Shown: positions 35,025 through 50,200 of the stretch, in pieces
Position numbering within the stretch: position 1 is the stretch's first letter
Layout of the letters: every line of letters begins with the position of its first letter
Source of the DNA: Schmidtea polychroa
Lineage: Eukaryota
Assembly: GCA_044892525.1 (NCBI GenBank)
Contig: CM097885.1
Coordinates: forward strand, 204,662,001 to 204,726,000
Reading direction: 5' to 3'
Length of the DNA: 64,000 bases
The notes under the pieces: generated by a model
Database searches by the model: none
What the model was told of the DNA's origin: nothing
Seen by the model: only the letters and a program-made list of their open reading frames with translations
Program-made: the position numbers and the translations under genes

Positions 35025-36310
35025 TGGATAAAAGGTATAAAATAAGGGATATATTGCTCCAGAATTCTGAAAAACAAAAGTGAAAAAAAGAAATTTAAAA
35101 TGAGATGAACATAACAGAGTCAATATAATTAAAAAATAAAACACAAAAAACAAATTGAAGAAGATTTGAAGACTTCTAACGTTCTATTCTATTTATGATA
35201 CTGATACTATCCATGATACTATTCTATCTCCATCCGGGGAGGAAGATAGCTACCTATCGGACATTCATCACGATGTCCTGCTTGACACAAATCAGTACCC
35301 AACAACAACGGATCAGTGAGTCGGATACATCATTATGATGAATGACAAAGACATTAATAGTAAGAGTAATTACATAATTCTATGTATAAATGCGGGGTTT
35401 AGTAGGGCTATTCTGGAACGAATGTCAAAATATCACCTAATCATTCATATTTAAAAAATTAATAAAAAATATGATTTCAAGGCGTCTTTAGTTTCAATGA
35501 TACAAAAATATTATTGACCAACACCCCTGAAAATTTAAAAATTGCAAACAATTATTATCTCAACATTTATTTATTGATGAAAAGGTACGTCCTCTCATAA
35601 TTGAGAAATTGAAATTCGTTCGGAAAGAATGACATTGTCAAAAAATTCCAGTCACCATAGGCAATATCATTACACCTAGTACTCAAGAAAATGGTGCCTA
35701 CCGACCTTGTAACGATTTTAGGAAATTCAAAAATATGCTTAAAAGAAATTTCTTAAAAAATGGGGATGTGAGGTGTTTTCCGCTGAGAATAGAATATTTC
35801 AATTATTTATTAAGATAAATGATAAATAATGAACTATTTAAATAAGTTTTCAAATAATTTTTAAATTAGAAAGAGATTTTGTTAAAGATAAATTTTAAAT
35901 AAATAAGATTTTTAAAAGAAGTTTTGTTAGTAAATAATTTTTAAATAAATACATTTTAAATATCGAAAATTTTAATAAATTGTTTTGAAAATATTTTATT
36001 CAATGCTGCAAATTTGTTTGAAAATTATACATTATTCAATTAAATAAATATTTGGAATTATGATGTTATCTTTTGAACTTGATTTAAAAAATAATTTAGA
36101 AGATGTTCTAATATGGCGACCAAGTCTATGGATTTCTTCATAAAGAAGCTATTTCCAAACGATTTCCATAGAGGAGACGATGTTGAGACATTCATTAAAG
36201 AATGTGATAAATATTTTAAAATTGTACAAATGCCCACTTCAAGACAAGAAGATCTCAACAAACAGATAAGAGACACATATACAGGAGTTGAGCCAAATAT
36301 CATTACGGAA

Positions 36311-37581
36311 AGTAGATGGTATGGGGCCATTCCGGTCAGGGGCCATCCCGGCCACATATACACCCTCCCCCGGGGAAAAATTTTTTTTATATAAAAGGTC
36401 AAGGTCATTTATTATTTCAAGGTCAAATTTTAAACAAAGACATATGACTCATCAAGGTCATTTAAACAAAGATCATGACTCATCCAGGTCGTTTCAAGGT
36501 CATTTCAAGGTCGCGTGACTCATCCAAGGTCATTTCCAAGGTCATATGACTCATTAGGATGAATCATTAAGGTCATATTATTATTTTTTAAATATTATTA
36601 TTATTTTTCAAAAATATTATTATGTGGCCGGGATGGCCCCTGGTTTTCGTTTGCCCAAAAGTTATCGTTCCCTTTATCCGAATTTATTAAACGATAGCTC
36701 ATTTTAAAGCCCAATCCAAGACCTTTTGAATGAGCTATTGAAGGTATCATCATTATTATTATTGGCAAAGTTATTAACGTTTTCCCGAGACCATTTTCAA
36801 GGTCATTTGACTATTATTATTTTTCAAAATATTATTTTTTCAAGGTCATATTTAAAAATTTAAATTTACAGAGTTTCCGCCAACGGCAATTGATCATCGA
36901 TATCTTAATTTGAAACCCAATCCAAGACCTTTCGAATGAGCCATTGAAGGTATCATCATCATTAATAATGACAAAGTTATTAACATTTTACCAAATATCA
37001 TTTTCAAGGTCATATAATTATTCAAAATATTATTAGTGGCCGGTATGGCCCCTGGTTTTCGTTTGCCCAAAAGTTATCGTTCCCATTATCAGAATTTATT
37101 AATCGATAGCTTATTTTGAAGCCCAGTGCAAGGTCTATCTATTGATATAAAAATATTATCATCATCATTATTATTGGCAAAGTTATTAAAGTTTTCCCGA
37201 TACCATTTTCAAGGTCATTTGACTATTATTATTTTTCAAAATATTATTATTTTCAAGGTCATTTATTTTTTCAAGGTCATATTTAAAAATTTAAATTTAC
37301 AGAGTTCCCGCCAACAAAAATTGTTCATCGATAGCTCTTTTTAAAGCCCAATCCAAGAGCTTTCGATTGAGCCATATATTATTATTATTATTATTATAAT
37401 TATTATTATTATTATTATATATACTCAGAGTCTATCCGACAAAATATTCTGTCCCCCTAAGCGTATTGCTAGCAAGGGTACTGCTCACACTCGACAAGTC
37501 ACATGGGTATTGTTCACAAAGTTACTGGTAAAAATATTCAAGACAAAACTTTAACAAAGAAACTATACTTTAAATATACAC
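36311..37581. repeat. Left terminal inverted repeat with internal ~0.4-kb tandem units (starting ~36622 and ~37035)
   Basis: 37441-37581 is the reverse complement of 46831-46970, and 36661-36722 of 47151-47212. Units start GTGGCCGG.ATGGCCCCTGGTTTTCGTTTGCCCAAAAGTTATCG. Confidence 0.85.
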
Positions 37582-37750
37582 ATATTAAACATATTACTTT
37601 TTCCATCATTAGATACTTATAGAGTTTAATTACCAATATTATAAAATGTAACTAATGATGAAAAAAAGTAATGAAAACTATAACGAGTTTTCGAAAATAA
37701 AAATTATCTACATAATAAAATAGAACGCAAATAATGTTTTAAAAGATTTA

Positions 37751-46831: not shown

Positions 46832-47240
46832 TGTATATTTAAAGTATAATTTCTTTGTTAAAGTTTTGTCTTGAATATTTTTACCAGTAACTTTGTGAAC
46901 AATATCCATGTGACTTGTTGAGTGTGAGCAGTACCCTGGTGAGCAGTACCCTTAGGGGGACAGAATATTTNNNNNNNNNNNNNNNNNNNNNNNNNNNNNN
47001 NNNNNNNNNNNNNNNNNNNNNNNNNNNNNNNNNNNNNNNNNNNNNNNNNNNNNNNNNNNNNNNNNNNNNNNNNNNNNNNNNNNNNNNNNNNNNNNNNNNN
47101 NNNNNNNNNNNNNNNNNNNNNNNNNNNNNNNNNNNNNNNNNNNNNNNNNNGTCTTGGATTGGGCTTTAAAATGAGCTATCGTTTAATAAATTCGGATAAT
47201 GGGAACGATAACTGGCCGGAATGGCCCCATACCATCTACT
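46831..47240. repeat. Right terminal inverted repeat (partly in the N gap 46971-47150; lacks the equivalent of 36340-36661)
   Basis: Direct inverted alignment to the left end as above. Confidence 0.85.
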
Positions 47241-50200
47241 ACGGAAATATTACTGAAGGCATTCGTCAAGAAAACAACGTTGCGAGAGGATTTAAAATCA
47301 GCTATGTCTAGACAGATGACCGAGGAGCCCAAAAAATATTTTAGTATCCTAGACGAGTTAGTTGATAAAATATTGGGACATGAGTTAAATAAGAAAGGTT
47401 TAACAGAATATCTACTGGTACACTGTGCAGCCGAGAAAACTTTGAAGCGAGAATTGTGTCTAAGTGACGCCAAAGACAAATGATTTATTAGAAATATTTT
47501 ACAGGACTTTAAAAATATTTTGAGAATTCGCTCAATTTTAAAAGGTTGGACAAATTTATTACCTTTCGTTCTATTGGATTGGAGAAGCTACAGAATCAAC
47601 TCCATTACATCTGTTATTCAGAACACAAACTTCGTTACCATAGGAGAACATTGATTTTAGAAAAAACACAACTTTGGAGGAACTCAAATCATCACATGGA
47701 TATTTCCTAACCATCAATTCAGATCCTCAATTCACCACAAGAACCAGATACAAGCAATATATTCCAAGGACTTTGGAAAAACCAACTCATGTTTGAATCA
47801 GAACCATATCCGACTCTGGTTTAAAACCGAGATACCTAGGCCCACACAAACTTTCTAAGATCATTGACAAACATGCACATGTTATTATCGACGGACAAAA
47901 CCAAACAATAGGTCAGCACACCTAAAGCCTGCATTTCATTACAGGATGACACAATCAATCATGCTAACCTTAGTTCAAAAGGAAAAAAATCATTTCAAAA
48001 ATGATCAAGGTTCTAAGAAAAACTCAAACAAAGACTACACCAATCTAAATAATTTGCTAATTTATAATACAATGAATATTCCAGAGACAAGTACAATAAT
48101 TCGAAATAATATTCAAAATTTGGAAAATACCTGCAATCCAAAATCAGGCCAGACAACAAGCAACAACAAAAAAACATTCTAATCAAACCTATTAAGCGAA
48201 ACAAAATATTCAAATACGCAACAATGAAATAAACACCCTAAGATAGGCATTCAGCGAATAGAAGATCCGAAAAGAAATCTTTCGTATATAGGGTACGCGA
48301 CAGAACCGTCAGACAATTTATATGTGATTGGCTTCGATTGTTGATGGAATACCTTTTCCGATACCAATATTTTTAATTTTGAACATAATTAAATTTAAAA
48401 AAAATTTATACATAAAATAGCATGTAAACAACATATTTCAATAAATTAGCCTAATTAAATGAATTTGTTTAAAATATATATTATTTTATTATTACTACAG
48501 TATTAAACATTGATCTATAGTCAAAATCTAAATGAAGACAAATGAAATTCTTTTTAAAAATAGCTCAATATTCAAAAAAAATAAATAATAACTAATAGCA
48601 ATAATTTTTACTGAATTTGAAAATATTTTTCTGATAATGTATCAAGAAATTTAATAATCATGATCTTACCCTGATGATCGATCTTCTGATGAGGTTTCCG
48701 TACTTGTTCAGGTTGGAACCAAGTTCCTTTCATTCTCTCTCGGCCTCACGACCCGCTTATGTCGTATATCGCGCCACATCTTGGCAGAACTTTTCCATTT
48801 GATCCACTGTAATGATTTTATTTAAAATTTAATCATGGAGTATATATAATAATACTACTGGTATTTATAATGGTAAAAAGTTATTGATTCTAATCTCCTA
48901 TTAATTATTTTAATTATGCAAATAATAAATTTACTAGTTGAAATCATTTTCTCCTTAAAGCTGTTGGGCCGGAAATGTATAAAATTAATAAAGTTTCCGA
49001 ATAAGGTTTCTTCGGTTTTATTTACCTGTTTTAAACAATAAATTAAGGTGAACTGTACTAAGGTGAAGGAGGCACCAACACAGCACAAAAAAGGCATAAA
49101 GTTTATTTAAAATAACTTAAAAACATCAAATAAACAAAATTTAAAAACATAACAAGAGAAAGTAAAATTTAAACAAAAGTAATAAAATCAGAAAATGCAA
49201 GAAGTAAATATTTTTCTACAAACGGGGCAGTAAATGCGGGCAACGAGACTACCATCAAAATGCAAGTACTTCTCTGGAAACTAATTATTAGATCTTCCTT
49301 ATACTGATTACGGGCGTTAACTTTGGCAGTTTTATATTTGACGCGAACAATACCAATTTCCCATGAGTTCAGGAATTGAACTTGAATAAGCCAGCTGTTT
49401 TGCCACACGATTTAAATTCGCTAAGCTACTTAATGTTCAACGAACAAGTTGTCGGAGTGTAACAAGAGGAATATAATTTATGCAATTAAGTTAACGAATA
49501 GGTATTTTTTGTGTAGACCCATCACCAGGTCCCGATTTCTTTCCCTGTCATGTTTCTATAATCACTGGAACTAAAGCCGAGCGTTTATTTCGACTTTGGT
49601 TTAAGCATTCTTTCAGCTATGATTATAATCTGTTATCCCAGTATTTATCATTTAGATATTTATTTTCTCAGATCATGTCTACTCCAACCTGTCACAAGAG
49701 CATCCTTCGGCTGTGTTTTTCTTGCGCCGATAAGAATAATATCATCCGACGACACTTCGAGCAGATCCAACTATTACGGCTAAAAGTATACCACTTGGAG
49801 GGCACGTGATTTAACCCGACCCAAATGAAGGAATTGTAGAAGAAAATCCTGCAACTAGAATATTGTCGCGATAATCTCTTAAAGGAGATCCGAGCGTAGA
49901 GGATCCTGATCAAGGAGCAGTCACAAGCGCTCCACCAGGTATACACGAGTACGGAACTAAAAGCACAAATTTAAGAATTAATAGACCCAACCAACGTCTA
50001 CTCAGCCCATTATCTCGTGGCTGATTCTTCTATCCATCGTCGACCTGCGTGCACATGATGTATAGCGACCTCTAGTGCGGCTCCTATACCAATGGCCATG
50101 GTCAATGACTCCGCGAAGAGTGCTCTAACCATCGCCCAACCAATCAACCAAGAGACCTCATCGTCAGTCCCAGCGCGTCCGAAATGTCACCCACTCTTGC

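Follow-up and report, generated by a model that had tools for sequence, protein, structure and literature searches.

A 64,000-nucleotide stretch of the Schmidtea polychroa genome (assembly GCA_044892525.1, contig CM097885.1, positions 204,662,001 to 204,726,000 of the forward strand; hereafter the window, numbered from its first letter) contains a 10.9-kb insertion that is probably a Polinton/Maverick integrated into the gag gene of a long terminal repeat (LTR) retrotransposon relic in an AT-rich eukaryotic genome. We favour this reading because the insertion has a target-site duplication (TSD) and ends that match perfectly over 25 bp, because all 18 testable relatives of the interrupted gene match both of its halves, and because the family B polymerase (PolB) of the element is colinear with an intact PolB. 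Furthermore, the locus that carries this intact PolB (L004) pairs the same PolB type, an ATPase and a protein similar to the TATA-binding protein (TBP) with an integrase and a protease.

Boundaries of the insertion

The hexamer ACGGAA is found on both sides of the insert as a direct repeat (36305-36310 and 47241-47246, + strand), and the element proper comprises positions 36311-47240 (10,930 bp as assembled). Its AGTAG/CTACT termini are complementary without a mismatch over 25 bp and at 28 of 29 positions overall. A preliminary description of this locus had noted a perfect 6-bp TSD beside these termini, and both ACGGAA copies were indeed found to be identical; the span that it gave for the element, 36311-47246, contains the element but includes one TSD copy, the proper end being 47240. 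Two random 6-mers of the flank composition would be identical by chance with P = 7e-4. There are 36 perfect inverted pairs of at least 20 bp in the window, 21 of them two-letter low-complexity sequences, and among the 15 pairs listed after these had been excluded, only the element ends have a flanking direct repeat of at least 4 bp. A second copy of the 25-bp end was not found in the 64-kb window, even if 7 mismatches were allowed.

In the vertebrate Mavericks covered by PMC8097293, the TSD is 6 bp long and the ends are (AGT)2 or (AG)3; the end motif AGTAGA...TCTACT of the present element agrees with (AGT)2 at five of six positions. A nematode Polinton study gives TSDs of 5-8 bp (10.1101/2023.08.22.554363). 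As the window copy is two residues short near the junction, we considered whether the target had contained ACGGAA in tandem beforehand, but rejected this because the linker length varies in the relatives, five aligned ones having gaps of 1-2 residues there, and because a TSD is the norm for the family.

The gag-like target gene

The insertion separates two pieces of a gag-like open reading frame (ORF). The 5' piece (36113-36310, + strand, 66 codons) is open from its ATG to the junction and matches residues 20-87 of protein P0095 (E 3e-18). The 3' piece (47247-47483, + strand, 78 codons and a TGA stop) has 26 relatives (E <= 0.001) in an unindexed search of 1.84 billion proteins. Translated separately, the pieces give 66 + 78 = 144 codons in the same phase; the other two phases are closed after 6 and 13 codons in the left piece and after 2 and 20 codons in the right one. 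The earlier claim that the element splits a gag-like ORF of 144 codons in frame is thus borne out, both by the shared phase and by the fact that both pieces match the same proteins. The in-frame join in itself is no surprise, since any clean insertion into an ORF would give it, but it validates the junctions.

In 18 relatives, 50 or more residues precede the right-piece match, and all of these are also matched by the left piece, in the correct order (18/18); the remaining 8 of the 26 are N-terminally incomplete and were left out of this test. That the two halves correspond to successive stretches of one set of proteins proves independently that the junctions lie in a single gag-like gene, and it also supports the scaffold link between the flanks. 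When the left 66-aa piece was used on its own in a word-indexed search among longer proteins, four candidates and no relative were obtained.

A zf-CCHC domain is present in the C-terminal half of all 17 relatives scanned (17/17; those of the 26 with at least 268 aa, length 268-411 aa). The CCHC zinc-knuckle layout is typical of LTR-retrotransposon Gag. The leads of the Atlas for the gag-like protein are DUF4939 and DUF7041 (0.91-0.92), and Pfam gave no above-cut-off match for either piece. In contrast to the Gag-like layout of its relatives, the window copy ends at codon 145, far before the position of their zinc knuckles, and has none itself; the alignment with 21 relatives shows gaps of 5, 2 and 1 residues in it. 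No LTR pair was found within ~9 kb on either side of the insertion, and neither was a downstream pol gene for this gag. Judged from its sequence, the target is a truncated relic and not a whole gene. Two candidates for further retrotransposon parts were rejected: the region 47484-47930 after the stop appeared integrase-like by eye and found no support in Pfam, PDB or the window itself, and the flank 35633-35818, which by eye looked similar to reverse transcriptase (RT), gained no support in the tests either.

Terminal inverted repeats

The left terminal inverted repeat (TIR) arm (36311-37581, + strand, ~1,270 bp) consists of the AGTAG end, a 22-bp palindromic pair, three ~206-bp units, a (TAT)n tract and an inner segment of 140-170 bp. 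The right arm (- strand) is represented by an inner part (46831-46970), in which 132 of 140 bp match 37442-37581, and an outer part (47151-47240) matching the left arm at 62 of 63 and 28 of 29 bp. Between them lies an assembly gap of 180 N (46971-47150), where a symmetric arm would need ~720 bp. Over the 232 bp that can be compared, the arms match at 222 positions and differ at 10. Five of the eight mismatches in the inner part are clustered at a 15-bp tandem pair, and the difference between the inner and outer parts (8/140 vs. 2/92) is not significant (Fisher P = 0.32). The outer right arm lacks ~320 bp (left-arm positions 30-349), the missing segment spanning the internal palindromic pair. 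In the left arm, the perfect 22-bp inverted pair (36337-36358/36621-36642) is accompanied by a third, 19-bp copy (37036-37054).

The element thus has the long TIRs of a Polinton/Maverick, with a left arm of ~1,270 bp and a right arm that is shorter and gapped. For the vertebrate Mavericks in PMC8097293, TIRs of 46-1,447 bp and element lengths of 12.7-24.6 kb are given.

Genes of the element

The PolB gene (38409-42418, - strand) is present in four pieces with an endonuclease VII-type insert and was recognized by Pfam, by its motifs and by colinearity with L004. Pfam gave DNA_pol_B_2 (E 7e-6; 25.6 bits, cut-off 25.8) and Endonuclease_7 (E 3e-5), and the polymerase motifs A, B and C are present. 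The pieces are colinear with the 1,073-aa PolB of L004 (E 4e-111) across three frame changes and one in-frame stop. On these matches, the PolB of the element is of the protein-primed type, present but broken at four places. Its polymerase half has no Pfam match, its exonuclease part is just below the cut-off, and no OTU domain was matched; the beta adintovirus PolB class is characterized in PMC8502044 as divergent, with a weak pfam03175 match and an N-terminal OTU domain. PolB had no match among phages and no PDB sequence match.

The second gene encodes the N-terminal half of a packaging ATPase (44311-44622, - strand) with Walker A and B motifs and an internal stop, 46% identical to residues 3-109 of the L004 ATPase. 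The latter is Pox_A32-positive (A32-type). The match halts at 44311, and no match to L004 residues 110-214 (of 214) better than E 0.48 was found.

No rve integrase was detected by Pfam in 12 six-frame readings of 38059-46830, 336 N bases being unseen, and Peptidase_C5 was not detected in these readings either. The L004 integrase matched the element only at chance level (E 0.013), on the strand opposite to PolB. In a search for protease and capsid genes, 196 ORFs from 15 related loci were compared with the element; PolB, the ATPase and the TBP-like gene were the only matches beyond chance-level ones (E 0.013-0.05). With its 10,930 bp, the element is also below the 13-25 kb range of Polintons/Mavericks. 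It fails as an autonomous Polinton/Maverick and would be a deleted, non-autonomous and dead derivative of one.

Comparison with related loci

A scan of genome contigs with the window polymerase revealed 15 related loci among 77 pattern matches. The most informative one, L004 (contig JANOGQ010000345.1, element at 1-11392), is filed in a bacterial metagenome-assembled genome (MAG), where it is probably misbinned. The 14 further PolB loci are also in bacterial MAGs and probably misbinned as well; seven of them have an ATPase nearby. L004 encodes the 1,073-aa PolB, the A32-type ATPase, an rve+chromo integrase, an adenovirus-type protease (Peptidase_C5) and a TBP-like protein, and has ORFs of 419 and 346 aa of capsid-like size; these capsid candidates had no Pfam or PDB match and are unconfirmed. 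By gene content, L004 is apparently an intact Polinton-like genome.

The window element shares with L004 the PolB type with an endonuclease VII insert (28-34% identity), the ATPase (46%) and the TBP-like protein (38%). L004 differs in possessing the integrase, the protease and the capsid-size ORFs and in its gene order, and its ends were not recovered. With Polintons/Mavericks (adintoviruses) as presented in PMC8097293 and 10.1101/2023.08.22.554363, the window element has in common the protein-primed PolB, the packaging ATPase, long TIRs and a 6-bp TSD, and its ends come close to the AGT type, with five of six positions of (AGT)2. It differs from them in having no integrase, protease or capsid gene in its sequenced part, in its length (10.9 kb vs. 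13-25 kb) and in its asymmetric arms. Most genomic Polinton/Maverick copies are reported as degraded (PMC8097293).

A compact TBP-like gene

Adjacent to the ATPase gene, the element carries an open frame for a compact TBP-like protein of 154 aa (44730-45194, + strand; Pfam TBP, E 7e-14). Among 117 candidates of 84-270 aa, 94 were relatives, and the family has a typical size of ~150 aa; in the alignment, one nearly invariant residue is substituted in the window copy. The AlphaFold2 model (72 aligned sequences) has a predicted local distance difference test (pLDDT) value of 95.7, and the best PDB matches found with Foldseek are TBPs (22-28% identity, 164-184 columns, TM 0.59-0.74). The predicted structure thus has the two-repeat TBP saddle fold. 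Since the identity to cellular TBPs is only 22-28%, the gene is not likely to be a recently captured host TBP gene.

The L004 protein (695-1147, - strand) belongs to the same family (profile E 1.5e-46; 38% pairwise identity with the window protein). L004 is the only one of the 15 PolB loci with this gene (1/15), but the other 14 contigs are short, with lengths of 1.3-6.7 kb. The gene was seen in two genomic contexts, the window and L004, and each of them is Polinton-type. A search of bacterial and archaeal genome contigs with the TBP-like alignment gave no locus directly, and among phages only a haloviral TBP matched. Viral TBPs, known from giant viruses and beta/gamma herpesviruses, have the same fold (Heterosigma akashiwo virus TBP, E 2e-7; weakly, herpesvirus BcRF1/UL87), but they are 8-22% identical, whereas the window family is ~150 aa long and resides in a mid-sized integrating element.

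A TBP gene is not among the genes listed for animal Mavericks in the passages considered from PMC8097293 and 10.1101/2023.08.22.554363. In their section on non-animal datasets, Starrett et al. have a figure in which one gene is marked as TBP (PMC8502044, Fig. 5). The MELD viruses with an adintovirus-like PolB are shown in the same figure. None of the titles and abstracts found in the literature deals with a TBP gene in animal Polintons, although the gene may already be annotated in Starrett et al. or in Repbase.

Other features of the element and the window

The element further contains a 139-aa ORF (45966-46385, + strand) with one relative at 88% and a weak match to phrog_18661 (E 5e-4). Its predicted fold is unusable (pLDDT 34); it had no match in the Atlas and none to the 128-aa ORF of L004 (probability 0.7%). 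Additional ORFs are located at 45375-45725 (+) and 46523-46831 (+); the latter, an acidic frame of 102 aa, ends precisely where the right arm begins on its inner side. Rfam revealed no family in 33000-50000.

The window as a whole is AT-rich eukaryotic DNA (20-45% G+C per kb) with many decayed transposons. A Tigger/pogo-type DNA transposon with terminal inverted repeats is found at 3122-5419, its DDE_1 transposase being split into two frames. Decayed LTR-retrotransposon pol regions are present at 9900-12700 (+; RT and RNase H) and 14243-16369 (-; RNase H and integrase), the latter interrupted by a small inverted-repeat element at ~15439-15980. Just left of the target, there is a near-identical (90-99%) local duplication (33565-33760/34838-35027) with 1,270-bp spacing. 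Exons of a host Rsm22/METTL17-like gene (Pfam Rsm22) lie at 58301-62970 (-).

Discussion

The structure of the locus would be explained by the following course of events. Its own protein-primed PolB would have copied the element as linear DNA, starting from the terminal repeats. The AGTAG/CTACT ends would have been linked by a retroviral-type (rve) integrase to target DNA cut with a 6-bp stagger, and gap repair would have duplicated ACGGAA. An internal deletion with one breakpoint in the ATPase gene at ~44311 would have removed the integrase/capsid/protease block; stops and frame changes would then have accumulated, and the copy would now be dead. A Polinton cycle of linear copies, rve integration and TSD repair is summarised in PMC6431247. 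If the 4.7-kb block of L004 is added to the 10.9 kb, a typical Polinton size would result. Where the preliminary description had proposed an integrase-type insertion into another transposon, the insertion into a gag-like gene with a 6-bp TSD stands, but the integrase is deduced from the family, its gene not being found in the sequenced part.

Several points weigh against this reading. No integrase is present in the sequenced part, so we have to infer the enzyme. The gene order is unlike that of L004 (the TBP-like gene adjoins the ATPase start in the window and the protease gene in L004), and the place of the lost block is therefore conjectural. The AGTAGA end falls short of (AGT)2 by one position. 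Moreover, the interior is cut off from both ends by two N gaps and could be from another copy, as suggested by the diverged second PolB end next to the first gap; frame breaks in a collapsed repeat can also be assembly errors. The junctions are safe; for the interior, both size and content are to be regarded as provisional.

The second PolB 3' end (37751-37902, - strand) is cut by the first gap (156 N, 37903-38058). It was identified by its similarity to 38285-38563: between 37660-37902 and the latter region, 183 of 225 aligned bases are identical (81%), with 72 gap columns, and both copies are open to a like-ending stop. This suggests two subfamilies, joined either by recombination or by the scaffolder. 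It is conceivable, although we consider it rather doubtful, that the scaffold is a chimera with real junctions, in which 38059-46970 stems from another copy or subfamily or 38059-38563 is falsely duplicated; the true insert would then differ in size and gene content. Besides the two PolB ends, the arm identity of 94% in the inner vs. 98% in the outer part would fit such a chimera; however, this difference is not significant, five of the eight inner mismatches form a single local cluster, and the left contig carries a PolB end itself, so that the insert bears PolB either way. A chimera of this kind is compatible with the integration of a Polinton/Maverick proposed above.

A further alternative, likewise rather doubtful, differs in the order of events only: the deletion came first, and a complete Polinton provided in trans for the replication and integration of a non-autonomous family member. 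The intact ends of an element without integrase would agree with this, and Polintons lacking polB have been reported as still mobile (10.1101/2025.02.07.637071). On the other hand, the window contains no second 25-bp end, even at 7 mismatches, and the asymmetry and divergence of the arms speak against it as well.

That the insertion is recent, or even still polymorphic, is unlikely. The identical TSD copies, the perfect terminal 25 bp and the target frame that is open on both sides would speak for it, and what look like gene breaks may be assembly errors in a collapsed repeat. However, the arms differ at 10 of 232 bp, ~320 bp are missing from one arm, and the element genes have 5 breaks in 5,213 coding bp. 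At this break rate, a 432-bp frame would stay open with P = 0.66, and with P = 0.34-0.61 in a simple model at 2% divergence. As openness is expected at P = 0.66, the open target frame says little about age, and the suggestion of a recent event drawn from it in the preliminary description is not supported, given the diverged arms, the decayed genes and the truncated gag. The insertion would be old enough for an arm divergence of a few percent.

Two nested elements, i.e., a short AGTAG-ended one that made the TSD and a gene-bearing unit bounded by the inner repeats (37412-37581 and 46831 into the gap), are very unlikely. The inner arm segment begins in a TA-rich microsatellite and may resemble Tc1-type ends. 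It has relatives elsewhere in the window, in other small elements, at 15601-15719 (80%) and 27473-27544 (74%); the latter lies within an insert of 210 bp that has a perfect direct repeat of 47 bp on its two sides (27339-27385/27596-27642). However, both dispersed relatives sit within these small elements and not at element ends, and a single element is the simpler reading, since the genes are Polinton-type and so are the outer ends. On the right, the boundary of the inner repeat unit falls in the N gap.

The longest direct repeat at the junctions is in fact the 8-bp TACGGAAA (36304-36311 and 47240-47247), and the sequence agrees equally well with an 8-bp TSD and 24-bp perfect GTAG/CTAC ends, the empty site being identical; the preliminary description therefore overstated the case in saying that the boundaries are fixed to the base. 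Nevertheless, an 8-bp TSD made by another type of transposase is highly improbable, even though 5-8 bp are given for Polintons in 10.1101/2023.08.22.554363, as the two additional matches need just an A and a T in AT-rich flanks (chance ~0.12 from composition) and the pattern published in PMC8097293 is AGT-type ends with 6 bp. The 6-bp TSD is thus preferred on the basis of family knowledge, i.e., the 6-bp TSD and AGT-type ends of Mavericks.

A transposon nested in another transposon is routine, and a 6-bp TSD is a known Polinton signature. The family-specific 25-bp end provides an anchor for locating complete copies. The lead from this locus is the TBP-like gene. From the two genomic contexts on which the idea rests, we see an even chance that a widespread, little-described Polinton lineage, some members of which are integrated in animal genomes, encodes its own compact TBP. 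If so, this protein would act like the TBPs of giant viruses and beta/gamma herpesviruses, redirecting host RNA polymerase II to the late (virion) promoters of the element. An element-encoded TBP would be a concrete, testable candidate for the means by which Polintons switch on their virion genes, and integrating elements of medium size would then share a transcription strategy with DNA viruses that are much larger.

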